The notes under the pieces are model-generated. The model was not told the DNA's origin, did no database searches, and saw only the letters and a list, made by a program, of their open reading frames with translations. Below are positions 3,064-63,725 of a stretch of 64,000 nt of DNA, in pieces. The stretch comes from Heterodontus francisci (taxonomy: Eukaryota): assembly GCF_036365525.1 (NCBI RefSeq), contig NC_090375.1:130920002-130984001 (forward strand), given 5' to 3'. A program made the position numbers and the translations under genes. Each line of letters starts with the position of its first letter. Positions within the stretch are counted from its first letter, which is position 1.

Positions 3064-4082
3064 GTAAGTAGATAACTTTGCAAGAATAACAAAAGCCACT
3101 TAATATCAGGGAAGAAAGATGCACAAGACCAGGATTAGGACCCAAAACAATAAATTCCTGATGATTGAGATGGGTAATTGGGTGAGGGAAGTCACAATGA
3201 GTCTTGTGAACTCAGATCTGAGGTTGATTTCTCTTATCCTTAGCACAGTTTTTGTTAGAAAATATACTTTTAACTTTATTTTATTTGTACCTCGAAACCA
3301 ATTTCCTGTCAATTATAAATACAGCTTCCTGGTAGACTCAGGCTCAACACAACCAATAAGTATAGAACAACAAATCAGAGTTCTGAAAGATGTCACAAAT
3401 ACAATAAAGTACAAATTAGAGGAAGAGATGCTTAAACTGCACATGGTCCTGTCAACTTTTGAGAGCTTGAATGCCTTTCTTTTATCTATCTGTTCTCATT
3501 TCTGACTACTTTTTCTATCTCACTGACTTTATGTATTTTTGTCCCAGTTGAATGAAAGATTTTTGAACTCAGATTTTCTTTAATCTAATTTTTCTGTATC
3601 TTGATGTTTCTCACTCTCTTCCTCACTGTCTCTTAAATTAGTCTCTCAATCTGAATTATTAAGATTTATAGAACAACAGTGAACAACAGGTCTGTCCCAC
3701 ACAACTGTGATGCCTTGTGCATCACAATATGTAAATTCCCCTTCCCACTTGAAATCCAGGTAATATTCTGGGAGAGGTGAAAAACCAGAAACAAATCCAG
3801 ACCAATTAGGGGGGGGGGGAAATCTGGAAAATTCCTCTCCTTATGTGATCAAGACTAATGCACGAGACCACACGAGATACTTCTCTTCCTCGACTTCTTT
3901 GCCTCCATCTCTGGGGATGGGCTGTCCACTAATATTCATTACAAGCCCACTAACTCCCACAACTACCTTGACTTCACTTCCTCACATCCTGCCTCCTGTG
4001 GGGACTCCATTCCATTCTCTCAGTTTCTCCTTTCCGATGCATCTGTCCTGATAATACAACTTTCCATAACAGCACTTCTGAT

Positions 4083-4425
4083 TTTAATTTATTTAAGAGA
4101 TACAACACTGAAACAGACCCTTCGGCCCACCGAGTCTGTGCCGACCAACAACCACCAATTTATACTAATCCTACATTAGCCCCATATTCTTTATCACATC
4201 CCCACCATTCTCCTACCACCTACCTACACTAGGGGCAATTTATAATGGCCAAATTACCTATCAACCTGCAAGTCTTTGGCTGTGGGAGGAAACAGAAGCA
4301 CCCGGCGGAAACCCACACAGACACAGGGAGAACTTACTAACTCCACACAGGCAGTACCCAGAACTGAACCCGGGTTGCTGGAGCTGTGAGGCTGCGGTGC
4401 TAACCACTGCGCCACTGTGCCGCCC
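4083..4425 (-). mobile_element. HE1-like V-SINE inserted in the Penelope copy
   Basis: Reverse complement starts gggcggcacagtggcgcagtggttagcacc (A box), followed by B box, V-domain and the gggccgaaggg tail. PLE sequence resumes on both sides. Confidence 0.9.
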
Positions 4426-5463
4426 TGTGTCTTCCTTTTTCCTCAACTGAGGATTTCCCCCCCACCCTCCACCACCATTGTGGTTGACAGGGCCTTCGAC
4501 CATGCCCAACCCATTTCTCGCACTTCTGCCCTCACCCCTTCCCCTCCCTCCCAGAACCACCTAGTCCTCATTTTCCACGCCACCAGCCTCCACATCCAAA
4601 GAATCATCCACCACCGTTTCGACCACCTCCAGCGTGATGCCACCTCCAAACACATCTTCCCCTCCCCTGTCAGCATTCTGAAGGGACCATTCCCTCTGCG
4701 ACACCCTGGTCCACTCTTCCATCACTCCCGACACCTTGTCCCCTTCCCATTGCACCTTTCCATGCAATCGCAGGAGGTGTAATACCTGCCCTTTTGCCTC
4801 CTCTCTCCTCACCATCCAAGGTCCCAAACACTCCTTCCAGATGAAGCAGCAATTTACTTGTACTTCTTTCAATTTAGTATACCGTATTCGCTGCTCACAA
4901 TGTGGTCGCCTCTACATAGGGGAGACCAAACGTAGATTGGGTGACTGCCTTGCAGAACATCTTCATTCAATCTGCCAGCATAACCCCGAGCTTCCAGTTG
5001 CTTGCCATTTTAATTCACCACCCTGCCCTCACACCCACATTTCTGTCTGGCCTGCTGCAGTGTTCCAATGAAGCTCAACGCAAGCTCGAGGAACAACACC
5101 TCATCTTCCGGTTAGCACTCTACAGCCTTCTGGACTCAACATTGAGTTCAACGATTTCAGAGCATGACTGCCACTTTTATTTATTTATATATATTTTTTT
5201 AACCATGTGCCGGTCTTAAACATGTTTTTCATGCTTTTGCTTTTGGACAGAGCTGTTCATTATTCTGCTATTCACACTCTCTCTGGACTAGTGCTCTGTC
5301 TTTTACTACAACTATTAGCACTCCCTTTGCCTTTTATTCCATGACATTGTTGTCATTTAATCTCTCCTGCCCTCCACCCGATCATACACTTTCCCTTTTT
5401 GTTCTTCTTTCCCCCCTTCCCCCTTTCACTTGCTCAAAGCCTATTACATTTCTAACCTTTGCC

Positions 5464-5500
5464 AGTTCTGATGAAAGGTCACAGACCTGAAACGTTAACC
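5464..5500 (+). ncRNA. Minimal type I hammerhead ribozyme motif (PLE-associated)
   Basis: AGTT-CTGATGA-A-AGGTC/ACA/GACCT-GAAAC-GTT-AAC: canonical core, 5-bp stem II, palindromic AACGTT stem III. Confidence 0.8.
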
Positions 5501-6814
5501 CTGTTTCTCTTTTCACAGATGTTACAAGACCTGCTGAGTATTTCCAGAACTTCCTGCTTCTTTTTCTGATTTCCAGCATCTGCAGTATTTTGCTTTTATA
5601 TTAGCCTGTTTTATAAGTCCATAAGACTTGACAAAATTTGACAAGCCTCAAAGAAGATATCAGCTTGGAAGCAGTTTTTTCCAATGAGGATGTGTAATAG
5701 ATTCCCAGTTAAAGTACTTACTATAATACCTTAAAAAAAGCTGGATGAAAATCTGGATAAGATTGGGGATAAGTATTATTCAGATCCACTTAAATAGAGT
5801 AATTAAGGATGTAAGGAACATGGTGGATCCAAAGCTTTAATCATAAATGTGTGATACCACAAAGCCATCAAGTCAAGGATTCATAATATTGGCTGTAAGA
5901 TGAGTAAGATATTCTCAAATGTTTATTGGTTCTCTTTGGGAAACAGAAACTAAAACTTTGCCAAACCTTTCCTCAGGAGATAAATGACTTCTGTGAAGTC
6001 CTTAATTTGGTTGAATGTATTTAGTTTGTAGAAAGAACGGACCTGGTGATCTGAATGGCTTTTTCACGTTCTATGCTTCTTATGTGTTCACCTCTTGTCA
6101 TGAAGGAGTGTCTTTCTTGATTCCTGTTTTTCCTCAACCATATCATGAGACTTCACCAATTTTATCAACATCAGGGATATGTTAGAACCAGTAAAATGGG
6201 CATTTGATCACAAGTACCTTTTAAGTGTGATGGTGTGTTTATTTTTAAGTAACATATATACATCAAGATAGGTCAGATTTTTAAATCAGAATTGAGTGTT
6301 TGTCGCTCAAAATGGGTAACACTTGAAAAGACTGACTTCAATAATATTTCCACCAACTGACAGCTGCACTGCAAGACTTCTTAAGCATTTGACATGCCCA
6401 TATCACAACAGAAAATCTGTTCAGTTCAGCATGCCAGTTCAATCTGTCTCATAGTTCCTGCCAGTGGTTCAGCCTTTTCAGTCAACCTGGAACCCTGATA
6501 CAATAGTTGTCAAGTAAGTGTAGCAATCCTGATATTTCCGATGCTCTTGCCAGAGGGTCAAAAATACATTTATTGTGAAATATCACTCCCCTGCCTACTG
6601 TGGAAAGATCATATTCAGTTTGTGTTGTACAAAAATGCATTAGCACAGTTTCGTTTTGTAGTGAGTCCAGGTGCTGGCAACATGCAGAGTACTATTAATT
6701 CTAATATGGCAAATTGCCATGGTAACTTCGCAGTGTAATAATCTATAAAGGTAGCATGTTCGAATAAAAATCTTACAGTTGTATTTGATTTCTTGATCCA
6801 AATGTCCAAAAACA

Positions 6815-7500: not shown

Positions 7501-7514
7501 GAGAGAAATTGAAT
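7501..7514 (+). repeat. Left 14-bp TSD of the palindromic PLE (gagagaaattgaat)
   Basis: Identical to 12605-12618, immediately outside the other end. Confidence 0.92.
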
Positions 7515-7576
7515 CAAAAACAAGAAATGTTGGATTCACTCAGCAGGTCTGGCAGCATCTGTGGAAAGAGAAGCAG

Positions 7577-7613
7577 AGTTAACGTTTCGGGTCAGTGACC
7601 CTTCTTCGGAACT
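7577..7613 (-). ncRNA. Hammerhead ribozyme motif, left PLE arm
   Basis: Reverse complement of 12465-12501. Confidence 0.7.
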
Positions 7614-7993
7614 GACAAATATTAGAAAAGTCACAGATTATAAACAAGTGAGGTGGGGGTGGGGCAAGAGATAACAAAGGAGAAGGTGCAGATTGGACCA
7701 GGCCACATAGCTGACCAAAAGGTCACGGAGCAAAGGCAAACAATATGTTAATGGTGTGTTGAAAGACAAAGCATTAGTACAGATTAGGTGTGAATATACT
7801 GAATTTTGAACATCAGCAAGTGCAAACCTGAAGAAAAACAACCTGAAAAAAACAGTGGGTAAGCAAACTGAACAAACTAAGATGAAATGAAATAAATGCA
7901 AAAAAAGATTGTAAAAAATGTAAAAAGGAATGCAAAAAAAAGGAAGAAAAAATAACTAAAAATGACTAAAAATGAAAGTAAAGTGGGGGGCTG

Positions 7994-10156
7994 TCATGCT
8001 CTGAAATTATTGAACTCAATGTTCAGTCCGGCAGGCTGTAGTGTGCCTAATCGGTAGATGAGATGCTGTTCCTCGAGCTTGCGTTGATGTTCACTGGAAC
8101 ACTGCAGCAATCCCAGGACAGAGATGAGAGCATGAGAGCAGGGGGGAGTGTTGAAATGGCAAGCAACCGGAAGCTCAGGGTCCTGCTTGCGGACTGAGCG
8201 GAGATGTTCCGCAAAGCGGTCACCCAGTCTGCGCTTGGTCTCCCCAATGTAGAGGAGACCACACTGTGAGCAGCGAATACAGTATACTACATTGAAAGAA
8301 GTACAAGTAAATCGCTGCTTCACCTGAAAGGAGTGTTTGGGGCCTGGGATAGTGAGGAGAGAGGAGGTAAATGGGCAGGTATTACACCTCCTGCGATTGC
8401 AAGGGAAGGTGCCCTGGGACGGGGACGAGGTGGTGGGGGTAATGGAGGAGTGGACCAGGGTGTCGCGGAGGGAACGATCCCTTCGGAATGCTGACAGGGG
8501 AAGGGAGGGGAAGATGCGACTGGTAGTGGCATCACGCTGGAGGTGGCGAAAATGGCGGAGGATCATCCTTTGGATATGGAGGCTGGTGGGATGAAAAGTG
8601 AGGACAAGGGGAACCCTGTCACGGTTCTGGGAGGGAGGGGAAGGGGTGAGGGTAGAGGTGCGGGGAATGGGTCGGACACGGTTGAGGGCCCTGTCAACCA
8701 CAGTGGGGGGAAATCCTCGGTTGAGGAAAAAGGAGGTCATATCAGAAGCACCGTCATGGAAGGTAGCATCATCAGAGCAGATGCGTCGGAGACGGAGAAA
8801 CTGGGAGAATGGAATGGAGTCCTTACAGGAGGTAGGGTGTGAAGAAGTGTAGTCGAGGTAGCTGTGGGAGTCAGTGGGCTTGGTAGACAACCTATCCCCA
8901 GAGATGGAGACAGAGAAGTCGAGGAAGGGAAGGGAAGTGTCAGAGATGGACCATGTAAAGGTGAGAGAAGGGTGGAAATTGGAAGCAAAGTTGATAAAGT
9001 TTTCTAGTTCGGTGCGGGAGCAGGAAACGGCACCGATACAGTCATCAATGTACCGGAAAAAGAGTTGGGGGAGGGGGCCTGAGTAGGACTGGAACAAAGA
9101 ATGCTCGACATATCCCACAAAAAGACAGGCATAACTAGGACCCATGCGGGTACCCATAGCGACACCTTTTACTTGAAGGAAATGCATGGAGTTGAAGGAG
9201 AAGTTGTTCAATGTGAGAACAGGTTCAGCCAGGCGGAGGAGGGTGTTGGTGGATGGGGACTGGTTGGGCCTCTGTTCCAGGAAGAAGCGGAGAGCCCTCA
9301 AACCATCCTGGTGGGGGATGGAGGTGTAGAGCGATTGGACGTCCATAGTGAAGAGGAGGCGGTTGGGACCAGGAAACTGGAAATTGTCAAAATGACGTAG
9401 GGCGTCAGAAGAGTCACGGATGTAGGTGGGAAGAGACTGGACCAGCGGAGAAAAGATAGAGTCTAGATAGGAAGAAATAAGTTCAGTTGGGCAGGAGCAG
9501 GCTGACACAATGGGTCTGCCGGGACAGTCCCGTTTGTGGATTTTGGGAAGGAGGTCGAAGCGGGCTGTCCGGGGTTGCGGGACTATGAGGTTGGAAGCTG
9601 TAGAGGGAAGATCTCCAGAGGAGATGAGGTCAGTGACAGTCCTTTGGACGGTGGCTTGATGTTCGGTGGTGGGGTCATGGTCCAGAGGGAGGTAGGAAGA
9701 GGTGTCTGTGAGTTGGCGTTGAGCTTCTGCAAGGTAGAGGTCGGTACGCCATACAACAACAGCACCACCCTTGTCTGCAGGTTTGATGACCATGTCGGGG
9801 TTAGACCTGAGAGAACGGAGTGCCTCAAGTTCAGAGGGGGACAGGTTAGAGTGAGTGAGGGGGGCAGAGAAATTGAGACGACCAATGTCTCGCCGACAGT
9901 TTTCAATGAAGAGATCAAGAGCGGGTAAGAGGCCAGGGTGAGGGGTCCAGGTAGAGGGAGAATGCTGGAGGCGGGTGAATGGGTCTGCTGGTCGGGGGGA
10001 GGACTCCTGGTCGAAGAAGTGAGCCCGGAGGCGGAGGCGACGGAAGAAGAGCTCAACGTCATGCCGAGCGCGAAATTCATTGAGGTGGGGGCGTAAGGGG
10101 ATAAAACTGAGACCTTTGCTGAGTACAGAACGCTCAGCATCAGAGAGGGGGAGGTC
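7994..10156 (-). CDS. Penelope-like RT plus GIY-YIG ORF, left arm (5'-truncated at DLPLSDAERSVLSKGL; 4-aa in-frame deletion)
   Basis: Open frame with KPADKGG, TMDVQSLYTSIP, GVAMGTRMGPSYA, RYIDD, CNRRRCNTC linker, VVYCIRC..YIGET and terminal GLN. The listed extension to 10531 is antisense of the right arm. Confidence 0.9.
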   Translation of the reverse strand, partial: DLPLSDAERSVLSKGLSFIPLRPHLNEFRARHDVELFFRRLRLRAHFFDQESSPRPADPFTRLQHSPSTWTPHPGLLPALDLFIENCRRDIGRLNFSAPLTHSNLSPSELEALRSLRSNPDMVIKPADKGGAVVVWRTDLYLAEAQRQLTDTSSYLPLDHDPTTEHQATVQRTVTDLISSGDLPSTASNLIVPQPRTARFDLLPKIHKRDCPGRPIVSACSCPTELISSYLDSIFSPLVQSLPTYIRDSSDALRHFDNFQFPGPNRLLFTMDVQSLYTSIPHQDGLRALRFFLEQRPNQSPSTNTLLRLAEPVLTLNNFSFNSMHFLQVKGVAMGTRMGPSYACLFVGYVEHSLFQSYSGPLPQLFFRYIDDCIGAVSCSRTELENFINFASNFHPSLTFTWSISDTSLPFLDFSVSISGDRLSTKPTDSHSYLDYTSSHPTSCKDSIPFSQFLRLRRICSDDATFHDGASDMTSFFLNRGFPPTVVDRALNRVRPIPRTSTLTPSPPSQNRDRVPLVLTFHPTSLHIQRMILRHFRHLQRDATTSRIFPSLPLSAFRRDRSLRDTLVHSSITPTTSSPSQGTFPCNRRRCNTCPFTSSLLTIPGPKHSFQVKQRFTCTSFNVVYCIRCSQCGLLYIGETKRRLGDRFAEHLRSVRKQDPELPVACHFNTPPCSHALISVLGLLQCSSEHQRKLEEQHLIYRLGTLQPAGLNIEFNNFRA

Positions 10157-10273
10157 TTCATTGAAAACTGTCGGCGAGACATTGGTCGTCTCAATTTCTC
10201 TGCCCCCCTCACTCACTCTAACCTGTCCCCCTCTGAACTTGAGGCACTCCGTTCTCTCAGGTCTAACCCCGAC

Positions 10274-12085
10274 ATGGTCATCAAACCTGCAGACAAGGGT
10301 GGTGCTGTTGTTGTATGGCGTACCGACCTCTACCTTGCAGAAGCTCAACGCCAACTCACAGACACCTCTTCCTACCTCCCTCTGGACCATGACCCCACCA
10401 CCGAACATCAAGCCACCGTCCAAAGGACTGTCACTGACCTCATCTCCTCTGGAGATCTTCCCTCTACAGCTTCCAACCTCATAGTCCCGCAACCCCGGAC
10501 AGCCCGCTTCTACCTCCTTCCCAAAATCCACAAACGGGACTGTCCCGGCAGACCCATTGTGTCAGCCTGCTCCTGCCCAACTGAACTTATTTCTTCCTAT
10601 CTAGACTCTATCTTTTCTCCGCTGGTCCAGTCTCTTCCCACCTACATCCGTGACTCTTCTGACGCCCTACGTCATTTTGACAATTTCCAGTTTCCTGGTC
10701 CCAACCGCCTCCTCTTCACTATGGACGTCCAATCGCTCTACACCTCCATCCCTCACCAGGATGGTTTGAGGGCTCTCCGCTTCTTCCTGGAACAGAGGCC
10801 CAACCAGTCCCCATCCACCAACACCCTCCTCCGCCTGGCTGAACCTGTTCTCACATTGAACAACTTCTCCTTCAACTCCATGCATTTCCTTCAAGTAAAA
10901 GGTGTCGCTATGGGTACCCGCATGGGTCCTAGTTATGCCTGTCTTTTTGTGGGATATGTCGAGCATTCTTTGTTCCAGTCCTACTCAGGCCCCCTCCCCC
11001 AACTCTTTTTCCGGTACATTGATGACTGTATCGGTGCCGTTTCCTGCTCCCGCACCGAACTAGAAAACTTTATCAACTTTGCTTCCAATTTCCACCCTTC
11101 TCTCACCTTTACATGGTCCATCTCTGACACTTCCCTTCCCTTCCTCGACTTCTCTGTCTCCATCTCTGGGGATAGGTTGTCTACCAATATCCATTATAAG
11201 CCCACTGACTCCCACAGCTACCTCGACTACACTTCTTCACACCCTACCTCCTGTAAGGACTCCATTCCATTCTCCCAGTTTCTCCGTCTCCGATGCATCT
11301 GCTCTGATGATGCTACCTTCCATGACGGTGCTTCTGATATGACCTCCTTTTTCCTCAACCGAGGATTTCCCCCCACTGTGGTTGACAGGGCCCTCAACCG
11401 TGTCCGACCCATTCCCCGCACCTCTACCCTCACCCCTTCCCCTCCCTCCCAGAACCGTGACAGGGTTCCCCTTGTCCTCACTTTTCATCCCACCAGCCTC
11501 CATATCCAAAGGATGATCCTCCGCCATTTTCGCCACCTCCAGCGTGATGCCACTACCAGTCGCATCTTCCCCTCCCTTCCCCTGTCAGCATTCCGAAGGG
11601 ATCGTTCCCTCCGCGACACCCTGGTCCACTCCTCCATTACCCCCACCACCTCGTCCCCGTCCCAGGGCACCTTCCCTTGCAATCGCAGGAGGTGTAATAC
11701 CTGCCCATTTACCTCCTCTCTCCTCACTATCCCAGGCCCCAAACACTCCTTTCAGGTGAAGCAGCGATTTACTTGTACTTCTTTCAATGTAGTATACTGT
11801 ATTCGCTGCTCACAGTGTGGTCTCCTCTACATTGGGGAGACCAAGCGCAGACTGGGTGACCGCTTTGCGGAACATCTCCGCTCAGTCCGCAAGCAGGACC
11901 CTGAGCTTCCGGTTGCTTGCCATTTCAACACTCCCCCCTGCTCTCATGCTCTCATCTCTGTCCTGGGATTGCTGCAGTGTTCCAGTGAACATCAACGCAA
12001 GCTCGAGGAACAGCATCTCATCTACCGATTAGGCACACTACAGCCTGCCGGACTGAACATTGAGTTCAATAATTTCAGAGCATGA
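10274..12085 (+). CDS. Penelope-like RT plus GIY-YIG ORF, right arm (603 aa from an internal Met, N-terminus missing)
   Basis: Uninterrupted ORF with the same RT (RYIDD) and GIY-YIG motifs. Confidence 0.92.
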   Translation: MVIKPADKGGAVVVWRTDLYLAEAQRQLTDTSSYLPLDHDPTTEHQATVQRTVTDLISSGDLPSTASNLIVPQPRTARFYLLPKIHKRDCPGRPIVSACSCPTELISSYLDSIFSPLVQSLPTYIRDSSDALRHFDNFQFPGPNRLLFTMDVQSLYTSIPHQDGLRALRFFLEQRPNQSPSTNTLLRLAEPVLTLNNFSFNSMHFLQVKGVAMGTRMGPSYACLFVGYVEHSLFQSYSGPLPQLFFRYIDDCIGAVSCSRTELENFINFASNFHPSLTFTWSISDTSLPFLDFSVSISGDRLSTNIHYKPTDSHSYLDYTSSHPTSCKDSIPFSQFLRLRCICSDDATFHDGASDMTSFFLNRGFPPTVVDRALNRVRPIPRTSTLTPSPPSQNRDRVPLVLTFHPTSLHIQRMILRHFRHLQRDATTSRIFPSLPLSAFRRDRSLRDTLVHSSITPTTSSPSQGTFPCNRRRCNTCPFTSSLLTIPGPKHSFQVKQRFTCTSFNVVYCIRCSQCGLLYIGETKRRLGDRFAEHLRSVRKQDPELPVACHFNTPPCSHALISVLGLLQCSSEHQRKLEEQHLIYRLGTLQPAGLNIEFNNFRA

Positions 12086-12464
12086 CAGCCCCCCACTTTA
12101 CTTTCATTTTTAGTCATTTTTAGTTATTTTTTCTTCCTTTTTTTTGCATTCCTTTTTACATTTTTTACAATTTTTTTTGCATTTATTTCATTTCATCTTA
12201 GTTTGTTCAGTTTGCTTACCCACTGTTTTTTTCAGGTTGTTTTTCTTCAGGTTTGCACTTGCTGATGTTCAATATTCAGTATATTCACACCTAATCTGTA
12301 CTAATGCTTTGTCTTTCAACACACCATTAACATATTGTTTGCCTTTGCTCCGTGACCTTTTGGTCAGCTATGTGGCCTGGTCCAATCTGCACCTTCTCCT
12401 TTGTTATCTCTTGCCCAACCCCCACCTCACTTGTTTATAATCTGTGACTTTTCTAATATTTGTC

Positions 12465-12501
12465 AGTTCCGAAGAAGGGTCACTGACCCGAAACGTTAAC
12501 T
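12465..12501 (+). ncRNA. Hammerhead ribozyme motif, right PLE arm (CCGAAGA core variant)
   Basis: AGTT-CCGAAGA-A-GGGTC/ACT/GACCC-GAAAC-GTT-AACT; stem I is AGTT/AACT. Confidence 0.7.
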
Positions 12502-12604
12502 CTGCTTCTCTTTCCACAGATGCTGCCAGACCTGCTGAGTGAATCCAGCATTTCTTGTTTTTGTTTCAGATTTCCAGCATCCACAGTATTTTGCTTTTAT
12601 TTTA

Positions 12605-12618
12605 GAGAGAAATTGAAT
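12605..12618 (+). repeat. Right 14-bp TSD of the palindromic PLE
   Basis: gagagaaattgaat, identical to 7501-7514. Confidence 0.92.
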
Positions 12619-12873
12619 GTTGCACTTATTGCATCATGTGAAGCTAATTCTTCCCAACAGCTTAATCAAATTTCAGAATGCATGAAAATAGGCTGGTTAT
12701 TGTGAAGCAATACAAAACTGCACTTACAGAATAGCCACAATCGTGTCTTGAGGCATAATATATTGTCACCATAATGACTTTTTGGATGCACTTGAATGTT
12801 CCAGTTTCCCATCACCAGGTAAGTGACCTTACATTTAGCATAGGTTTCTGACAAAGGATTTTCCAATCCTGCC

Positions 12874-20720: not shown

Positions 20721-22130
20721 TTACCTTGATCAAGCTTCTCTGTTACCTCATCAAAAAACTCCAGCAAGTTAGTTAAACATGATTTGCCCTTTATAAATCT
20801 GTGCTGGCTTTCCCTAATTAACCCGCATTTGCCCAAGTAACTATTCATTTTGTCCCGAACTATTGTTTCTAGAAGCTCCCCCACCACTGAGGTTAAACTG
20901 ACTGGCCTGTAGTTGCTGGGCTTATCTTTACACCCTTTTTGAACAAGGGTGTAACATTTGCAATTCTCCAGTCCTCTGGGACCACCCCTGAATCTAAGGA
21001 AGATTGGAAAACTATGGCCAGTGTCTCCGCAATTTCCGCCCTCACTTCCCTCAATATCCTTGTATGCATCTCATCTGGTCCTGGTGCCTTACTACTTTAA
21101 GTACAGACAGCCTATCCAATGCCTCCTTATCAATTTTAAACTCTTCAAGATCTGAATTACTTCCTCTTTCACCATGATCTGTGCAGCATCTTCTTCCTTG
21201 GTAAAGGCAGATGCAAAGTATTCATTTAATACCTCAGCCATGCCCTCTGCCTCCATGCTGTTATGCTCATGTGCAGTGCAGTGATAGAAATTACAGAACT
21301 CAAGCTGAAGAGTTATAAAAATTGACTTTTCATTTAAAAAGTGGACAATGTGCTGGAAAAATGGCTGCCAAGGGTCAAAAGACCTGACCTTGTATATTCA
21401 AACTGTCTTACTGTGTGGTAAGAACAAAAAGATACCTTCTAAGCTAAGAGGTATCAATTACATGCATCCTGAACCCATCAAGAGACATTTTTGATTGAAT
21501 GGGTTCTTCTGAAACAAAGAAGGTGTGAAGTAGCCACATTATGGGCCATTGTCGGTCACTACAGGGAGGAAGATTTATGTTTCCCAACAGAGGCAAGATG
21601 TGAGACTATTTTGACCTTAAAAGTAGCTCTCTGGAGAGAGAGAGAAGGAAACCCAGGAAAAACATCATGAAAGCTTGTCGAGCTGAAATCTAGGAGCAAA
21701 TCCAGCTAGCCAGAAATAAGGTGCCATGCCGTGAGTTCTATAATGCAACTTGGGCATGAGAAAACTGAAAGTGATCCCCAGACTCCAGACTGAAATTTCA
21801 ACTAACAGAGCAATCTACAAACAACACAGGCCTGCAACTTGAAAGAGAAATTGATCTCTGGGAAGATTTAACAGATTACTATGAACCCCGAAAACCTACT
21901 TTACTTCAAAGCCCTTACCTCTTTTCCTCTATATCTATCTCTTCTTGTGTGTGCATGCGAGTGAATGCGTGTGAGGGTATAGATGCGACTATTTTGGGAG
22001 TGAATATTTTCTCAGTAAATAGTTAATCTTCTGTTTTAAACCTGCAAGAAAACCTGTCGCTGTCTGTTTATTTGACAAATAAAACACAAAGGGAATTAAA
22101 ACCCTAGTAACAAAAACACTTGCTGCATTC

Positions 22131-22541
22131 GTTTTTTTATTCTTTCATGGGATGTGGGCATCACTGGCAAAGCCAGCATTTGTTGCCCATCCCTGATTGC
22201 CCTTGACAACTGAGTGTCTTGTTAGGCCATTTCAGTTAAGAGTCAACCATGTTGCTGTGGGTCTGGAGTCACATGTAGGCCAGATCAGGTAAGGACAGCA
22301 GATTTCCTTCCCTAAAGGACATTAGTGAACCAGATGGGTTTTTATGATAATCGATGATAGTTTCATGGCACCATTACTGAGACTAGCTTTCAATTCCAGA
22401 TTTTTTAGATTAATTAATTGAATTTATTAATTGAATTTAAATTCCACCAGCTGCCATGGTGGGATTTGAACCCATGTCCCCAGGGCATTAGCTAGGGCCT
22501 CTCGATTATTAGTTCAGTGACATTTCCACTACGCTTTCCCC
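22131..22541 (-). mobile_element. tRNA-derived SINE with a tail shared with the second-family LINE
   Basis: Minus-strand B box gggttcaaatcc. 3' end (plus strand ttcatgggatgtgggcatcactggc..tgcccatccc..ttgcccttga) matches the LINE ends at 13790, 25025 and 62090. Confidence 0.8.
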
Positions 22542-22584
22542 TGGTCAATTGGGAGTTGAACTGTGGGGACCACCTACACGCCTT

Positions 22585-24446
22585 TTTTAGAATTAGAATT
22601 AGAATTAGAACATTACAGCGCAGTACAGGCCCTTCGGCCCTCGATGTGAAACCATCTGACCTACACTATTCCATTTTCATCCATATGTCTATCCAATGAC
22701 CACTTAAATGCCCTTAAAATTGGCGAGTCTACTTCTGTTGCAGGCAGGGCGTTCCACGCCCCTACTACTCTCTGAGTAAAGAAACTACCTCTAACATCTG
22801 TCCTATATCTATCACCCCTCAACTTAAAGCTATGTCCCCTCGTGTTTGCCATCACCATCCGAGGAAAAAGACTCTCACTATCCACCCTATCTAACCCTTT
22901 GATTATCTTATATGTCTCTATTAAGTCACCTCTCCTCCTCCTTCTCTCCAATGAAAACAACCTCAAGTCCCTCAGCCTTTCCTCGTAAGACCTTCCCTCC
23001 ATACCAGGCAACATCCTAGTAAATCTCCTCTGCACCCTTTCCAAAGCTTCCACATCCTTCCTATAATGTGGTGACCAGAACTGCACGCAATACTCCAGGT
23101 GCGGTCTCACCAGAGTTTTGTACAGCTGCAGCATGACCTCGTGGCTCCGAAACTCGATCCCCCTACTAATAAAAGCTAACACACCATATGCCTTCTTAAA
23201 AGCCCTATTAACCTGGGTAGCAACTTTCAGGGATTTATGTACCTGGACACCAAGATCTCTCTGTTCATCTACACTACCAAGAATCTTCCCAATAGCCCAG
23301 TACTCTGCATTCCTGTTACTCCTTCCAAAGTGAATCACCTCACACTTTTCCACATTAAACTCCATTTGCCATCTCTCAGCCCAGCTCTGCAGCCTATCTA
23401 TGTCCCTCTGTACCCTACAACATCCTTCGGCACTATCCACAACTCCACCGACCTTCGTGTCATCCGCAAATTTACTAACCCACCCTTCTACACCCTCTTC
23501 CAGGTCATTTATAAAAATGACAAACAGCAGTGGCCCCAAAACAGATCCTTGCGGTACACCACTAGTAACTAAACTCCAGGATGAACATTTGCCATCAACC
23601 ACCACCCTCTGTCTTCTTTCAGCTAGCCAATTTCTGATCCAAAGCTCTAAATCACCTTCAACCCCATACTTCCGTATTTTCTGCAATAGCCTACTGTGGG
23701 GAACCTTATCAAACGCCTTACTGAAATCCATATACACCACATCCACTGCTTTACCCACATCCACCTGTTTGGTCACCTTCTCGAAAAACTCAATAAGGTT
23801 TGTGAGGCACGACCTACCCTTCACAAAACCGTGCTGACTATCGCTAATGAACTTATTCTTTTCAAGATGATTATAAATCCTGTCTCTTATAACCTTTTCC
23901 AACATTTTACCCACAACCGAAGTAAGGCTCACAGGTCTATAATTACCAGGGCTGTCTCTACTCCCCTTCTTGAACAAGGGGACAACATTTGCTATCCTCC
24001 AGTCTTCCGGCACTATTCCTGTCGACAATGACGACATAAAGATCAAGGACAAAGGCTCTGCAATCTCCTCCCTGGCTTCCCAGAGAATCCTAGGATAAAT
24101 CCCATCTGGCCCAGGGGACTTATCTATTTTCACACTTTCCTAAATTGCTAACACCTCCTCCTTGTGAACCTCAATCCCATCTAGCCTAGTAGTCTGAATC
24201 TCAGTATTCTCCTCGACAACATTTTCTTTCTCTACTGTAAATACTGACGAAAAATATTCATTTAACGCTTCCCCTATCTCCTCTGATTCCACACACAACT
24301 TCCCACTACTGTCCTTGATTGGCCCTAATCTAACTCTAGTCATTCTTTTATTCCTGATATACCTATAGAAAGCCTTAGGGTTTTCCCTGATTCTATCCGC
24401 CAATGACTTCTCGTGTCCTCTCCTTGCTCTTCTTAGCTCTCCCTTA
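22585..24446 (-). mobile_element. Young 5'-truncated CR1/HER1-like LINE with (ttctaa)n tail
   Basis: Nearly intact ORF2 3' part; ends gggccgaagggcctgtactgcgctgtaatg(ttctaa)n. Confidence 0.93.
22661..24133 (-). CDS. CR1 ORF2 reverse-transcriptase domain (490-aa open frame; frameshifted from 24140-24403)
   Basis: KSPGPDG, NYRPVSLTS, QHGFVKGRSC, DFSKAFDKV, GVPQGSVLGP, FADDTK. Confidence 0.9.
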   Translation of the reverse strand: MKIDKSPGPDGIYPRILWEAREEIAEPLSLIFMSSLSTGIVPEDWRIANVVPLFKKGSRDSPGNYRPVSLTSVVGKMLEKVIRDRIYNHLEKNKFISDSQHGFVKGRSCLTNLIEFFEKVTKQVDVGKAVDVVYMDFSKAFDKVPHSRLLQKIRKYGVEGDLELWIRNWLAERRQRVVVDGKCSSWSLVTSGVPQGSVLGPLLFVIFINDLEEGVEGWVSKFADDTKVGGVVDSAEGCCRVQRDIDRLQSWAERWQMEFNVEKCEVIHFGRSNRNAEYWAIGKILGSVDEQRDLGVQVHKSLKVATQVNRAFKKAYGVLAFISRGIEFRSHEVMLQLYKTLVRPHLEYCVQFWSPHYRKDVEALERVQRRFTRMLPGMEGRSYEERLRDLRLFSLERRRRRGDLIETYKIIKGLDRVDSESLFPRMVMANTRGHSFKLRGDRYRTDVRGSFFTQRVVGAWNALPATEVDSPILRAFKWSLDRHMDENGIV

Positions 24447-27517: not shown

Positions 27518-28107
27518 AGTTCTGATGAAAGGTCATCAACCTGAAACGTTGGGCTGAATTTAGTGGTGGCAGCGCGGTCCCGCTGATGGGCCTGAAATTG
27601 CAGGGGTGACCTTGCTTCGGTGGTCAGCAGCAGCCAATTAAGCTATTAAGGATGGCCATCCACCTCCCCCCCCCCAAAGAGCTACTGGCCAATCAGAGGG
27701 CAGCCATTACTGCTGGGGGGACACTTCCATGGGTCAAAGGGTGCCCAAAAAGGAGTGGCCCTCCCGAGGATCCCACTGGGAGGCTGCCAGGGTCTACCTG
27801 GCAGACTGCCTACACAGGGGAGATCCCTCCCCACCACTGATAAAATGCCAGTGGAGGTGGGAAGAGGCCTTTAATTGGCCACTTAAGCGGCTCAATTGGC
27901 CTCTGGGCAGGCAGGCCATCCATCACCTTCCCCACCACTGGCAGTTCCCTCCCCCACCAATTCCCAGCCCATTCCCAGAGGGCTGGTAAAATTCAGCCTG
28001 TTAACGCCATTTCTCTCTCCACAGATGCTGCCAGATCTGCTGAAAATTTTCAGCATTTTCTGATTTTATTTCAAATTTCCAGCATCTGCGGTATTTTGCT
28101 TTTATGT
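27518..28107 (+). mobile_element. Short PLE 3' end (hammerhead plus tail) split by a MITE
   Basis: agttctgatgaaaggtcatcaacctgaaacgtt | MITE | gttaacgcc..cagatgctgccag..gtattttgcttttat. Confidence 0.85.
27551..27999. mobile_element. PIF/Harbinger-type MITE
   Basis: TIRs gggctgaattt / aaattcagcct; 3-bp TSD gtt (27548-27550, 28000-28002). Confidence 0.8.
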
Positions 28108-34564: not shown

Positions 34565-35102
34565 TCTTTTCTTCTTCTTCTTTTGGGCCTCCTTATCTCG
34601 AGAGACAATGGATACGCGCCTGGAGGTGGTCAGTGGTTTGTGAAGCAGCGCCTGGAGTGGCTATAAAGGCCAATTCTGGAGTGACAGGCTCTTCCACAGG
34701 TGCTGCAGAGAAATTTGTTTGTTGGGGCTGTTGCACAGTTGGCTCTCCCCTTGCGCCTCTGTCTTTTTTCCTGCCAACTACTAAGTCTCTTCGACTCGCC
34801 ACAATTTAGCCCTGTCTTTATGGCTGCCCGCCAGCTCTGGCGAATGCTGGCAACTGACTCCCACGACTTGTGATCAATGTCACACGATTTCATGTCGCGT
34901 TTGCAGACGTCTTTATAACGGAGACATGGACGGCCGGTGGGTCTGATACCAGTGGCGAGCTCGCTGTACAATGTGTCTTTGGGGATCCTGCCATCTTCCA
35001 TGCGGCTCACATGGCCAAGCCATCTCAAGCGCCGCTGACTCAGTAGTGTGTATAAGCTGGGGGTGTTGGCCGCTTCAAGGACTTCTGTGTTGGAGATATA
35101 GT
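34565..35102 (-). mobile_element. Young RTE-clade LINE 3' fragment
   Basis: ORF RRLRWLGHVSRMEDGRIPKDTLYSEL..CSTCGRAC..GLYSH; (gaa)n tail; 11-bp TSD gatggcagcat (34554-34564, 35103-35113). Confidence 0.92.
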
Positions 35103-35706
35103 GATGGCAGCATATTAATAGATTAAGTGAATGAGCAAAACTGTGGCAAATTGACTTCAATATAGACAAGTGTGACATCATCCACTTTGGACCTAAAATG
35201 GATAGATCAGAGTACTTTCAAAATGGTAAAAATCTAGAAGCAGCCGGATCCAAAGAGGCTTAGGGGTCCATGTACATAGATCATTAAAATGTCATGGATA
35301 AGTATAAAAAGTAATCATGAAGGCAAGTGGAATGTTGGGCTTTATATCTACAGGCATAGAATACAAGGGGTTAGAAGTCATGCTACAGCTGCACAAAGCC
35401 CTGGTTAGACCACAACTGGGCATTACACTTTAGGAAGGATATATTGGCCTTTGTGGGAGTGCAGCATAAATTTACTAGAATGATACCTGGATTCTAAGGT
35501 TTATTTTATGAGGAGAGATTACACAAACTACGGTTGTATTCCCAGGAATTTAGAAGATTAAGGGATGATTTGATTAAAGTTTTCAAGATATTAAGGGGAA
35601 CTGATCGGGTAGTTAGAAACTATCTCTGCTGGATGGGAAATCTAGGATTCTGGGACATAACCTAAAAATTAGAGCCAGGCCTTTCAGGAGTGAAGTTAGA
35701 ACATAA

Positions 35707-49563: not shown

Positions 49564-51321
49564 CACTGTAGATACCCAATGAATTTCAGGCCCATAATAT
49601 CATTCTGGCCTAAACTTTGCTGGGGTTCCACTCCTGCTAGGATGAATGCACCTTAAACCATCACTTACTTGCAACAGAATTTAGGGCATAACTTAAATGA
49701 AGCAAATGGCTAGCAGATCCTCTCTCATTCCCAAATTCTGCCTTCCCCTGCACCCCTCCATAGATCCTTCAGGTTTATGCCCCACCAATCCATCAGAATT
49801 CCTGTGTCCTAGTATTTGTGTACTTATAAACTGTTCTTTTACATATCACTTCCCTAGTTTTCTCTTAGGTATAATGTTACCATTTTATTCTCAATTATTC
49901 TTCTTTGGTCCAGAGACATTTACATCTCCTTTGAGGGTTTCATACTTGCATAAATGATTTTAGCTTCGGGATTGTTCTATTTTAATTTCTGTCACACTCT
50001 GTGCTTTCCTACAGGATTTTTGTTGCAGTGCCTGTGGCTTTGTGATGTCCTTCTTTAACTCTGGTACTATATAATGTTTGTTTCTTCAAGTTTAGTTTGG
50101 TTTCCTTAATCTCAATTGTCATCAGTTTTTGTTCTCTCTTCCTGTCCTTTTCCTAGAAGTGATGAATTTGCTTCAGTCTCTTTTTTTTCCTGTCTTATAT
50201 CTTCAGGCGATATGCTCCTTACTCTGATTCAACTTTATTAACATTTTTTTCCTTCTTACAGAATTGGGGCTCTATCTTTTTCCTCTTATTCAGCTCATTC
50301 ATCTTTCAGACTGTTTCATGAATTGGTTTCCCAACCTTAGGAGCTGGATTGAGAATTCTTGGGGCCTTGAGCATCAAGAACATTTGCAGCCTTTTCTGGT
50401 TCCACACATACAAGCAACCCGAACCCCTCCCCGCCACAATCCATTAAAACACAAATGAGTAGTAAAATGCATGAAGAAATAGGTCTGTAGAATGTTTACA
50501 AACTGCATTTATAACACTTATGCCAGGATCAGCGGCTAACAGATCTTTTGGGTCATGGTGAATATCGTTTTTGAAATATCACTGTTGAGCAACCTGTTAC
50601 TTTTACATTTTTTTACTTCATAATTTCGTAATAGACCCCAATCAATAGTGGTAATGTACAGGAGACAAGCAAACTGACATAACAAAAAGGCTAATATGCT
50701 TGTCGTCTGATTCATTTCTGTGTTATTAAGATTAATTATGGAACAGAAAGCGCCGACAGACATCTCATCAACCAGACAGAAAAGACCAATTCCCACAATT
50801 ATGAATATTTTGATAATCTCTTGACTGATTGGAAGAGAATGAAGCATGAAGGGCCATTCAGTTATTTGACTTGAACAATTATAGAAACCAAGTGCAGGAA
50901 TTAATAAAGGCAAGGTGATAGTGCAAAAATTTAAAAATACATTCTACATTTTATTAACCTAGAAATACTCATCAGAATCATGTTGTTGCAATCAGCCTCA
51001 CAACCACCAATAACCCTTCAACAACTCCAAATGAAAAGGTTTTACCACTGTCTTTCTATTTTGGGTCTCAAAGTGTGACATCTTCTTCAAAAATCTCTGT
51101 GAGTGCATCTGTTAACAGTTCCTTCATATCATTCTCTGAGATCCTGCTAGACTGGGTTATGATCACTCAGCCACCTATCTCCATCCTATTCCACAACCAT
51201 TGGAATTTAGTGGATTTATGGGTTTTCCTAAAAAGAAATAGTAGTTTGGCTGCGCAGAATGTGAACTTAGTAAAATGCAGCCGATCTTAGTAAAATGTAA
51301 CACATCCAACATGCTCATTAT

Positions 51322-51449
51322 TCTGACGAAAGGCCACAGGCCTGAAATGTTAACTCTGTTTCTCTCTCCACAGATGCTGCCAGACCTGCTATTTCCAACA
51401 TTTTCTGGGGTTTTTTCAAATTTCCAGCATCTGCAGTGTTTGCTTTTGT
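51322..51449 (+). mobile_element. 128-bp PLE 3' unit (hammerhead plus tail) with 11-bp TSD
   Basis: CTGACGA-A-AGGCC/ACA/GGCCT-GAAAT-GTT-AACT then the PLE tail; flanks atgctcattat / atgctcaatat. Confidence 0.8.
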
Positions 51450-52064
51450 ATGCTCAATATCCCCTTTAACTTGTTTTCACCTTAATAATTTTGATGTAAA
51501 TTATGTGAAAGCTTCTGTGTTAATGACTTTTCCTCAGTGGCAAGAAGTTGCAATTCTTTCATTTGCCCACTAGATGTGGCTTTGCAGAAAAGAGCCTCTC
51601 GTCTGAGTTGCAGGAATTTTCTGGTAAGTCTTTGTTAACCAATCAGATTCTGCAGAACTGTCTGGAATCCTGACAAACATATGACAGTATTTGTTACTGA
51701 GGTGGGTGCTATAATATAGAAGGCTTGTGCAATTCAAAGCGCAGTAAAATGTAAGGAGGTATTTTAGACTATTCTTTTTCCAGGGTCACGTTTCCAAAAT
51801 AATGGAATTTGTACAGCATCAGCCTGATTTAGAATTTGTAGCACTACTTTTCGATGTATTTTTATGGGTCAAAGTGTGTTTCAGTTCACTATGTAGGGTG
51901 GATCAAATGTCTTTACTTTGATTGGATAACATAATTTCTTTTTTATAGCAAGGACTTTGATCTGGTTTAAATTTCATTATGTTTTAGTGTTAATGCAACA
52001 TTAGCACTATGGGTAGAGAATTACTTTTTCTGTGTCGCTGTAGTTTGACTGTGAAGGCTTCCTG

Positions 52065-53745: not shown

Positions 53746-55783
53746 TCTCTGTCGCACCAACAGAACAGAGCTCTTTACAAAAACTATATTACTGCCCCGT
53801 TTGGGCGTAACAAGTCCTGTGCCTTGCGTCCCAAGAACATCTGAAGAATGTCTGACTTGAGATTAAGTCAGGCCTTTTTTCAGGCAACCAGTGTGGTTTT
53901 CCTAGGACAGGCATTTGGCCTCTTGAATAGACTAATGAGGGGCCTGAAGCCTAGTTTAGGACCCCTAAGGGAAAACGGGATGCCCAGACATAAGGCCTGC
54001 TCCCACCAATGGGAGTCTCTCTTGAAAGGCTCAGTAGTCTCTTACACCTACCTTCAGCGGGGGCCTGTGAGGAGGGATCTCTCTCAGCCTTGGTCTCTCT
54101 TCCTACCCCCACCCACAAATCCCAGGCCTCAGGGAGCAGGACCTGACCAAACCGGTGCCATGGTTTCCCTGGCACTTTGTGTGAATGAACCTGGGACTCC
54201 GAGTATCTCCTCCTCATCCTCGGGGCCTCTTACCTGCTGAATGTGGTGTCCTGAATCCATAAACAGGTCCCTTCTCTCTGGCTGAAGCACAAACTTTGGG
54301 GTCACATGCTACGTCACCCATAACTCATGCATATACATCAGCACGTAGTGCAAAGTACCTCATGATCACTTCAGGCTCCAGGCTCAGCAAAGCTGTGGCA
54401 GGCCACACTTCTGGTTTCTTCAGGTGCACATACACAGTCCTGAACAAAAGAGGAATTGCTAAAAATCCCCAGTTTTCGAAGCGAGGGTTTGAATTTGACT
54501 TGAGAAATCTCACCTCTCGCAATTAATTTGTGAAAGTTAACATGGCTGAGCAATAACAGTGGCCCTGTGGCCCCAGCGGCAGTATGAAGACAACACACCA
54601 AAAGTTGCAAGCAAGGCCATGAGAAACAATATGGGTCTGGAATTCCAGGAAAGCTGTAAAGGGGAAAAATATGCAAAAAATTAAATCATAGTTCAATGTT
54701 CTTCTTACCTCCTTTACTAACCTATACCAACATGGTGAAAATAGAAAGGAGGCCCTAAGCTTTGAGATGCTCCAAAGTAATACTCAGTGGGCAGAGCCTG
54801 AAAGTGCAAGGAGTGTTTTTTTAAACTATGGACTTTCTATACTGCAGTAGTTATCAATTTTAGCAGCTGTCACAGTTATCTGCGGTTAAATGTTGCCAGT
54901 TTTAAACTGTGTTTTCCTTTAATGAAACCTGACACCTGATTTTTCAACATATTTTGAGATAGAATGTTGCAGCACACTGAGTAGTTTTAATATAGAATAA
55001 ATATTGTTCAGTCACTGTTGTTGGTGGACCAGAGTGAAATGTAAGCTTGTGCAGGTTTGCAAAATCGAGTAGCTATTGTTCTTGAAAACATCTGGCCTGG
55101 CTTTCAGGCAGCATTAGGAATCCTCATTAAAAACAGGCAAGAGCTTCATTTCAGTATTTAAATATATTGCATGAATGAGTGAATGGGAAGAAAAGTAGCA
55201 GTGACAGGGAAGTACTAACCCTGAGCTTCAGTGATGTTTCCAGGTTCACTGTGGCACACTCACTCTACATTGTCAGGCCCCCTATGTTCAGCATGACCTG
55301 TTCATATGGTTTGAGGGTCTGAAGTGAGGGGTGCCCTACAGTTCTGGTCTACTCCCCCATGTTATATATCACTTTGTCCAGCAGCAGAGAATAGTGCTAC
55401 AATATTGGAAGTTTGGAGAGCGCATAAAGAATGACAGCCTGTTTGCTCAGAACAGGAGTCGGCCATTCAGCCCCTCAAGCCTGGTCTACCATTAAGTTAG
55501 ATCATGGTTGATCTGTATCTGAACTCCATTTACCCACCTGGTGTCCCAGTTCTTGTGTAAATAAATGAATGTGCAACATGCAGGGTAGTTGTGCGATAAG
55601 CTTGTTTTGTGGGATCACCTTTTCAAATGGCCACGCAACAGCAATTCCAATGTGAAGTAGCAGAAGTAAGGTATGCCCTGCTACAGTATGGAAATGTATG
55701 TTAAGCTTGGAAAGAACTGTTTCAGAAACATAGCAATTGCTAGATAAAAAAGACCAATCTCCATCCAGTTTGCATTCTATCAT

Positions 55784-55994
55784 AAAAGCAAAATACTGCG
55801 GATGCTGGAAATCTGAAATAAAAACAAGAAATGCTGGAACCACTCAGCAGGTCTGGCAGCATCTGTGGAAAGAGAAGCAGAGTTAACGTTTCGGGTCTTC
55901 CGAAGAAGGGTCACTGACCCGAAACGTTAACTCTGCTTCTCTTTCCACAGGTGCTGCCAGACCTGCTGAGTGGTTCCAGCATTTCTTGTTTTTA
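55784..55994. mobile_element. 211-bp palindromic mini-PLE with 14-bp TSD
   Basis: Inverted arms 55817-55897 and 55916-55996 (one mismatch), extra tail on the left arm, TSD ttgcattctatcat (55770-55783, 55995-56008). Confidence 0.92.
55898..55932 (+). ncRNA. Hammerhead motif at the centre of the mini palindrome
   Basis: TT-CCGAAGA-A-GGGTC/ACT/GACCC-GAAAC-GTT-AACT; stem I 5' strand truncated. Confidence 0.6.
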
Positions 55995-56142
55995 TTGCAT
56001 TCTATCATCCTGGCTGTCACATGATACAACAATAATGTAATTGACTAATCATAGCATTAGTCTATTACAATTAGTCTCCAACAGACATGACATGACATGA
56101 GGGAAACCTGTGGTGGACAGCTTTCGGAACCATAATCCAAAG

Positions 56143-56494
56143 TAAAGGCCTGCTCGGGTCTGCAAATGGGACTCGACCCGAGCCCGACAGAACCCCATCT
56201 GACCCCGAGCCCGACCCAGCCCGAGTCCTTCCATTTTTTCACACGCCCGACCCGACCATCAGTTAACTTACCTTCCGTTTTTCACTTTGTTCCTTAACTG
56301 CACAAAATCACTTTTAAAGTCCAAAAAGTAAATTAACGTTAAGGTCACTTACCTGAGGTGGTGATAGAGCGTGGCCGATCCGGCCCGAGCCGACCCGAGC
56401 CCAAATGCCGGACCCGGAAGTTCGACCCGACCCAACCCGAACCCGACACATGTCGTCGGGTCCCTTCAGGGTCGGGTCAGGTAGCAGGCCTTTA
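56143..56494. mobile_element. hAT-like MITE
   Basis: TIRs taaaggcctgct / agcaggccttta, many (a/g)cccga subterminal repeats, 8-bp flanks atccaaag / atccacaa (6 of 8 match). Confidence 0.75.
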
Positions 56495-62079: not shown

Positions 62080-63725
62080 TTTTTTTTAATTCATTCCTGG
62101 GATGTGGGCATCACTGGCTAGGCCAGCGTTTATTGCCCATCCCGAATTGCCCTTGAGAAGATGGTGGTGAGCTGCCTTCTTGAACCGCTGCAGTCCATGT
62201 GGGGTAGGTACACCTGGAGTGCTGTTAAGAAGGGTGTTCCAGGATTTTGACCCAGCGACAGTGAAGGAACATCGATATAGTTCCAAGTCAGGATGATGTG
62301 GCTTGGAGGGGAACTTGCAGATGGTGGTGCTCCCATGCATCTGCTGCCCTTGTTCTTCTAGAAGGTACAGGCCACGTACTTGGAAGGTGCTGTTGAAGGA
62401 GCCTTGGTGCATTGCTGCAATGCATCTTGTAGATGGTACACACTGCTGCCACTGTGCATTGGTGGTGCAGGGAGTGAATGTTTGTAAATGGGGTGCCAAT
62501 CAAGTGGGCTGCTTTGTCCTGGATGGTGTCAAGCTTCTTGAGTAGTGTTGGAGCTGTACCCATCCAGGCAAGTGGAGAGTATTCCATCACACTCCTGACT
62601 TGTGCCTGGTCGATGGTGGACAGGCTTTGGGGAGTCAGGAGGTGAGTTATTCGTTGCAGGATTCCTAGCCGCTGACCTGCTCTTGTAGCCACGGTATTTA
62701 TATGGCTACTCCAGTTCAGTTTCTGGTCAGTGGTAACCCCCACGATGTTGATAGTTGGGGATTCAGCGATCGTAATGCCATTGAATGTCAAGGGAGATGG
62801 TAAGATTCTCTCTTGTTGGAGATGGTCATTGTGTGGCGTAAATGTTATTTGCCACTTATCAGCCCAAGCCTGGATATTGTCCAGGTCTTGCAGCATTTCT
62901 ACACGGACTGCTTCAGTATCTGAGGAGTAAACATTGTGCAATCATCAGCGAACATACCCTCTTCTGACCTTATGATTGAAGGAAGGTAATTGATGAAGCA
63001 GCTGAAGATGGTTGGGCCTCGGACACTACCCTGAGGAACTCCTGCAGTGATGTCCTGGAGCTGAGATAATTGACCTCCAAAAACCACAACCATCTTCCTT
63101 TGTGCTAGGTATGACTTCAACCAGCAGAGAGTTTTCCCCTTGATTCCCATTGATTCCAGTTTTGCTCGGGCTCCTTGATGCCATACTCAGTCAAATGCTG
63201 TCTTGATGTCAAGAGATGTCACTCTCAACTCACCTCTTGAGTTCTGTTCTTTTGTCCATGTTAGAACCAAGGCTTTAATGAAGTCTGGAGGTGAGAGACC
63301 CTGGCAGAACTCAATGAGCAGGTTATTGCTAAGCAAGTACCGCTTGATAGCACTGTCAACGACACCTTCCATCACTTTACTGATGATTGAGAGTAGACTG
63401 GGGTGGTAATTCGCTGGGTTGGACTTGTCCTACTTTTTGTGTACAGGATATACCTGGACAATTTTCCACATTGTCGGGTAGATGCCAGTGTTGTAGCTGT
63501 ACTGGAACAGCTTGGCAAGGGGTGCGACAAGTTCTGGAGCACAGGTCTTCAGTACAATTGCCGGAATGTTGTCAGGGCCCATAGCCTTTGCAGTATCCAG
63601 TGCCTTCAGTCGTTTCTTGATATCACTCAGAATGAATTGAATTGGCTGAAGACTGGCATCTGCAATGCTAGGGACTTCAGGAGGAGGTTGAGATGGATCA
63701 TCCACTTGGCACTTCTGGCTGAAGA
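62080..63725 (-). mobile_element. Second-family CR1/L2-group LINE, RT and 3' end
   Basis: ORFs 63430-63705 (KAMGPDNIP), 63187-63375 (LDIKTAFD), 62899-63150 (GVPQGSV..FADD) and 62288-62941 (AQVRSVMEYS). Confidence 0.92.

Follow-up and report, generated by a model that had tools for sequence, protein, structure and literature searches.

The 64,000-nt window of the Heterodontus francisci genome that we analyzed contains a 211-bp palindromic mini-insertion that is very probably a one-off, heavily truncated insertion of an endonuclease-bearing Penelope-like element (PLE; Neptune-type). The exact 14-mer that flanks it does not extend further on either side, and in a random control only one of 5,000 pairs of 25-nt windows 150 to 400 nt apart shared at least 12 exact letters. 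Its inverted arms pair over 81 bp (55817-55897 with 55916-55996) with a single mismatch (55862/55951) and an 18-nt loop, and the RNA fold reaches -161.9 kcal/mol, a value as low as which was found in none of 200 shuffles. Among the 22 pairs of short inverted repeats (≤400 nt) in the window, the mini-insertion alone is of such quality. In the alignment each edge is ambiguous by 2 nt, with TT at 55995-55996 and AT at 55782-55783 matching the element and the target-site duplication (TSD) equally well. The original prediction had described this palindrome, with its 14-bp TSD, edge ambiguity and 81-bp arms of a PLE 3' end, and all of these features were recovered.

We mapped the arms onto the right arm of a 5.1-kb palindromic insertion of the same family in the same window, whose coordinates are given below as those of the parent (Table 1). 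The tail is present in the left arm only, while parent positions 12467-12484 are present in the right arm only. The tail-less arm ends, in the alignment, at one site common to the mini-insertion and the 5.1-kb element, as had been claimed. Because each arm carries four substitutions relative to the 3' end of the 5.1-kb copy (96% identity), two of them matching majority alleles in family reads, the sequence comparison supports the earlier proposal that the mini-insertion is independent of the 5.1-kb copy, and suggests that it came from the family mainstream. A GC-rich run of CCCGA repeats (56140-56480), with a short inverted repeat at 56424-56478, lies beside it.

Table 1. Coordinates of the mini-insertion and of related PLE copies in the window
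Feature	Position	Strand	Details
Left target-site duplication	55770..55783		14 bp, exact match to 55995-56008
Mini-insertion left arm, PLE 3' end antisense, tailed	55784..55897	-	114 nt; parent 12485-12598
Mini-insertion tail	55784..55818	-	35 nt; parent 12564-12598; left arm only (alignment)
Head-to-head junction 55897/55898	55893..55906	+	No natural microhomology
Mini-insertion right arm, PLE 3' end sense, tail-less	55898..55994	+	97 nt; parent 12467-12563
Minimal type I hammerhead-like motif	55900..55932	+	Core CCGAAGA, extra A, palindromic helix III
Right target-site duplication	55995..56008		14 bp
5.1-kb palindromic insertion, same family as the mini-insertion	7501..12618		TSD exact 14 bp, 7501-7514 / 12605-12618
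PLE ORF, 5'-truncated	10157..12085	+	DKG, YIDD RT, CX4CxxC linker, GIY-YIG-type nuclease
Old single-armed tailed copy	51310..51462 (copy 51321-51447)	+	Starts at parent 12467
Old single-armed tailed copy	27519..28105	+	Starts at parent 12465-12467
Old longer tailed copy	3880..5597	+	No inverted partner found

The 5.1-kb element (7515-12604) consists of a tail-less left arm of 2,642 nt and a tailed right arm of 2,448 nt, which meet at 10156/10157 with 2 nt of microhomology. The palindrome is near-perfect: between its arms there are a few substitutions and one 1-nt gap, and the left arm has lost 12 bp in frame. The 642-aa frame of the parent matches the Pfam family RVT_1 (E 3e-6) and, weakly, GIY-YIG (E 0.0014; relatives reach 2e-5), with two Cys residues ahead of the YIG and the linker at aa 508. 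A CX2-5CxxC linker between RT and nuclease is described for Neptune, and as shared with Nematis, in the available text of PMC8557442; by this motif alone the parent would be of Neptune or Nematis type and not Penelope/Poseidon. Among the 120 listed of 3,043 homologues, the named relatives of highest identity (67 to 75%) are from sharks and rays.

As for the older copies in the window, that at 51.3 kb has a possible decayed TSD (11 of 14 letters), a search around the copy at 3.9 to 5.6 kb gave a weak 11/14 match, and a search around that at 27.5 to 28.1 kb found none. This last copy is split by a 449-bp element (27551-27999), single in the window, that has inverted ends of 11 bp and a duplication of 3 bp (GTT); its insertion point is the predicted hammerhead cut site of the old PLE copy. 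The frames at 19219-24139, 34630-35217 and 62288-62941 resemble CR1/L2- and RTE-type LINE fragments.

Both outer ends of the mini-insertion are 3' termini used across the family. We placed reads from 4 of 24 listed runs on positions 10131-12700; one of them, X21, is a capture library from another individual and has no depth on unique flank. The parent retroelement is very abundant, with 165,109 of 11,989,820 raw X21 reads (1.4%) falling on the element. These reads pass into unrelated flanks at 12562 (2,208 reads) and at 12598/12600/12601 (6,100 reads), which are the two ends of the mini-insertion, and the tail-less share of these four positions (27%) is close to the 2 of 7 ends in the window. 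Depth in X21 is about 17,600 at 12453-12538 against 7,200 in the preceding bin, a step explained in part by older subfamilies, whose alignments are confined to the conserved end.

The mini-insertion thus has what is found in an insertion of an endonuclease-bearing PLE, namely a parent with RT and GIY-YIG domains, an inverted 5'-truncated copy, a one-sided tail and a TSD, and its geometry is the published skeleton of an inverted copy with a tail on one end and a TSD. In PMC3846280 the typical PLE structure has direct pLTRs and an adjacent inverted pLTR, with a 31-bp tail on one inverted pLTR, TSDs of 8 to 10 bp, and palindromes at the inverted junction that are interpreted as self-priming. [quoted passage not shown] The head-to-head copy, tail and TSD of the mini-insertion all recur in Pen2a_Av (PMC3846280), in Fig. 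2 of PMC8557442 and in D. virilis Penelope (PMC2377424), as do a tail of 30 to 40 nt (35 nt here), an inverted arm offset at its 5' end and a junction palindrome. In contrast to these insertions, so far as the same sources describe them, the mini-insertion has no ORF or tandem part and arms of only about 100 nt each, and its 14-bp TSD is longer than the 8 to 10 bp of the rotifer examples. The original prediction read a fixed mechanism from the repeated geometry, and this is supported, but the geometry itself was already on record for PLEs in these three sources. In a literature survey that covered titles and the openings of abstracts, we found neither ORF-less palindromic stumps in sharks nor PLE double priming.

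The closest experimental guide to how such an insertion could form is PAc, an element of Anolis carolinensis in the Poseidon clade. According to the available text of PMC11167929, the PAc protein nicks and extends both strands, its RT starts at two internal sites bracketing the tail, it is predicted to be a dimer, and the template RNA is uncleaved. As in the family studied here, where the hammerhead is a candidate one, two 3' termini bracket the tail downstream of the hammerhead and the ends do not lie at the cut; the two differ in that PAc belongs to Poseidon whereas the parent here has the Neptune/Nematis-type CX4CxxC linker, and the available PAc text presents no model of inverted insertion. 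By analogy with that work we borrow both-strand nicking, two start sites and an uncleaved template, while we infer the 14-nt stagger, the use of one start site per strand, the run-off at a fixed RNA boundary and the end-joining of the cDNAs. The protein would first nick both DNA strands 14 nt apart, and both 3' ends would then prime RT, one at the tail start site and the other 35 nt further in; the tail would be one-sided because there are two RT start sites, the explanation that the PAc experiments offer (PMC11167929, available text). On an uncleaved RNA the inner cDNA would reach a fixed boundary at the 5' edge of the hammerhead, most simply the RNA 5' end if priming took place in the upstream pseudo-LTR (pLTR) of the transcript, while the tailed cDNA would halt 18 nt short. 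The cDNA 3' ends would be joined head to head, possibly via a 2-nt snap-back giving a GA/TC overlap, and fill-in would create the TSD. We consider PLE insertion together with this mechanism the likely explanation overall; the steps from priming to joining, as written here, are close to evenly balanced and lean slightly toward needing revision. In L1 twin priming the second strand likewise primes a second cDNA and the ends are joined head to head, and the two copies in an L1 inversion come from neighboring stretches of the RNA that for the most part do not overlap, whereas here the same 79 nt were copied twice.

The boundary in this scheme is suggested by the starts of the short sense copies. 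All three of them in the window begin at 12465-12467 (the mini-insertion right arm at 12467, the copy at 51321 at 12467 and that at 27519-27521 at 12465-12467), the 5' edge of helix I. With starts spread evenly over a 50- to 300-nt zone, the chance of such sharing is at most 0.01, a figure drawn from three copies, one of them with a 2-nt ambiguity. This suggests run-off at a fixed RNA boundary at the 5' edge of the hammerhead. Position 12467 is absent from the loose-end starts among those listed for X21. The stretch 12434-12467 has an Inr-like sequence at 12465 and a TATA-like sequence at -31; the Inr-like motif is weak, with 17 matches per 519 nt. The same spot also reads as a branch point followed by a CAG acceptor, in the young and the old copy alike, with other acceptor-like CAGs ending at 12519 and 12569. 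Helix I marks the end of an intron in D. virilis (PMC4209133, available text), a position that corresponds to the acceptor-like CAG here. An intron reading of 12466/12467 is weakened because the 3' UTR of the parent holds no GTRAG donor.

That both arms end within a hammerhead had been claimed as well, and this held with one qualification: by hand alignment the left arm starts in the 3' strand of stem II and the right arm 2 nt ahead of the core, while no Rfam model recovers a hammerhead. In the parent (12465-12501) the motif has a helix I of 4 bp, the core CCGAAGA, an extra A, a stem II of 5 bp and a palindromic helix III, with a predicted cut between 12497 and 12498. In the mini-insertion, stem II spans 55908-55920 and the predicted cut falls after 55928, stem I is reduced to 2 bp, and the hairpin stem encloses the motif. 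Stem II is paired in all rows of the alignment, with 2 of 5 pairs compensatory among only 4 distinct rows (shuffle control marginal, 25/500). The extra base between positions 9 and 10.1, the palindromic helix III and the short helix I are common to this motif and the minimal hammerheads of PLE pLTRs in the available text of PMC4209133; those hammerheads differ from the CCGA of the young copies here and from the truncated stem I of the mini-insertion. The core reads CTGA in three old copies, and the young copies (12470, 55901) have C at hammerhead position 4 and a basal stem II pair changed from A-T to G-C; the active subfamily may have a weakened ribozyme. Rfam gave no match in the window at the gathering score and, at E up to 10, no hammerhead around the mini-insertion or the end of the parent; the 3' end folded by itself yielded neither significant structure nor a hammerhead (z about -0.1 to -0.2). 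We rejected hammerhead cleavage as the origin of the arm ends, since the predicted cut lies 13 and 31 nt downstream of the arm starts and the template was therefore not cleaved there.

The junctions of the two palindromes share a short motif. GGTC/TTC is common to both (55893-55900 and 10153-10159), and 0.15 to 0.7% of random junctions share seven letters with that of the mini-insertion in the same way (200,000 trials; post hoc). A third GGTCTTC in the window (63544) has neither a palindrome nor PLE similarity. One arm of the contig joint 10730/11897 also starts at GACC, as do 2% of random junctions; a GACC start in one of four independent joints has P of about 0.08, and 3 of 6 junctions examined have such an arm start. 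A 5-bp micro-palindrome spans the mini-insertion junction (55896-55906), and a 2-nt snap-back on it would supply the overlap that this junction lacks. The tail-less arm extends further 5' in both palindromes, a weak pattern at n = 2. A correlation of arm lengths was not significant by itself, since, if truncation is what depth reflects, 11 to 27% of arms extend to 2.4 kb.

The steps from priming to joining have a serious rival, although on balance an unlikely one: a single priming event, after which self-priming or fold-back (perhaps using an antisense RNA) and a template jump would build the second arm, as in the interpretation put forward in PMC3846280 (available text); this is compatible with the PLE identity of the insertion. 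In its favor, the micro-palindrome at the mini-insertion junction fits self-priming (5% of random junctions have a stem as good), and a 4-bp stem is present at the 5.1-kb junction (17%). Self-priming would also account for the near-equal arm lengths in both insertions (114/97 and 2448/2642 nt) and for arms that are nearly identical. Against it, each arm includes a stretch missing from the other, so that neither arm copies the cDNA of the other, and a simple fold-back of either strand cannot yield both the tail and 12467-12484; moreover, both outer ends are the two family-wide 3' termini.

The original prediction also raised a non-autonomous hairpin family, in which the PLE protein would re-insert transcripts of the 211-bp unit in full. 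The mini-insertion is young (TSD 14/14, one arm mismatch), has the tail region on one arm, and non-autonomous PLE derivatives are known, including the Chlamys derivatives (PMC8557442) and retrozymes (PMC7229834; bioRxiv 10.64898/2026.07.22.740005), all from the available text. The non-LTR retrozymes of the latter two sources are, like the mini-insertion, short, non-coding and PLE-related with a type I hammerhead (a candidate one in the mini-insertion), but as described there they are head-to-tail tandems with a hammerhead per unit, whereas the mini-insertion is inverted with one core; lacking head-to-tail units with full hammerheads, it was rejected as a non-LTR retrozyme. The inverted orientation argues against a hairpin family, as the known non-autonomous forms in these texts are head-to-tail and not inverted. 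An 81-bp stem would in addition bury the inner start site as well as the hammerhead, and promoter-side sequence upstream of 12467 is missing from the unit.

Replication of the hairpin found no support in the reads or the window, which do not refute it either. The mini-insertion junction (12485/12467) is absent among the 15 joints listed of 600 in the four runs, the only ones that this absence covers, and there is no second mini-insertion in the 64-kb window. Four of these 15 joints are strand switches, at varied positions (10730/11897, 12305/12332, 12495/12495 and 12497/12567), and the best X21 switches among the listed joints have 45 to 56 reads at a depth near 17,600, which would place the mini-insertion junction below about 56 X21 reads, or about 0.3% of depth, if the joint list is ranked by support. 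A high-copy hairpin family is therefore unlikely, while a low-copy family may still have room, and we judge a replicating unit of either kind quite improbable. A recurring junction needs care as a test of replication because the start of one arm appears to be a fixed site, and partly recurring junctions would be expected even without replication of the mini-insertion. The predicted hammerhead cut is no more than 3 nt away from two of the three best-supported raw-read switches, 12495/12495 (45 reads) and 12497/12567 (47 reads); the latter, if head to head, would combine a tail-only arm with one that starts at the cut, a pattern resembling twin priming on a single cleaved RNA, although such counts near the cut could also come from library fold-back or capture of single loci. 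Outside this genome, pattern scans for the family 3' end found no PLE copy in public metagenome contigs, prokaryote genomes or viral contigs, a single match (L001) being 21 nt without further similarity, and a protein-based locus search of viral contigs confirmed 0 of 27 candidates.

Long near-perfect palindromes are unstable, and the mini-insertion could in principle be the remnant of a longer one whose center was deleted later, which would leave arms of similar length. We consider this very unlikely: the right arm start is shared with two single-armed copies that never had a center, the junction has no natural microhomology, and the 5.1-kb palindrome has kept its center. Self-priming with a template jump is a likelier rival than either central deletion or a replicating hairpin family. 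A MITE (DNA transposon) or a pre-miRNA, suggested by the hairpin shape and by Rfam miRNA models that match at low E-value, can be set aside almost entirely, because those matches fall far below the gathering score (best 58.5 against 90), the inverted repeats are not terminal, with 33 unpaired nt between the left TSD and the arm, and the sequence is that of a retroelement 3' end.

The mini-insertion as such is unremarkable: it is a truncated copy of a retroelement that is very abundant, and annotators could mistake it for a MITE or a pre-miRNA. What is new here are the near-identical starts (within 3 nt), the arm-specific sequence and the GGTC/TTC at both junctions. We propose, as a speculative reading that is possible but rather less than probable, that the mini-insertion is the smallest trace that one PLE integration complex leaves: a dimer would prime both nicked strands on one RNA, the leading RT at the inner start and the trailing RT at the tail, the leading cDNA would run off in a strong-stop-like manner where the RNA has a fixed end, at the 5' edge of the hammerhead, and the ends would join preferentially at a GGTC 3' end with a 2- to 3-nt overlap. 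If so, priming in the upstream pLTR of the transcript would account alike for inverted pLTRs, for the solo copies of 130 nt and for a tail on one side, and we would expect mixed tailed and tail-less pairs, a tail-less arm that reaches further 5', starts piled up at 12465-12467 and arm starts enriched in GACC. Stumps like this one expose all four ends within 240 bp and so provide a clean record of PLE integration, and the exact edges of the mini-insertion hint at how the inverted pattern of PLEs is made.
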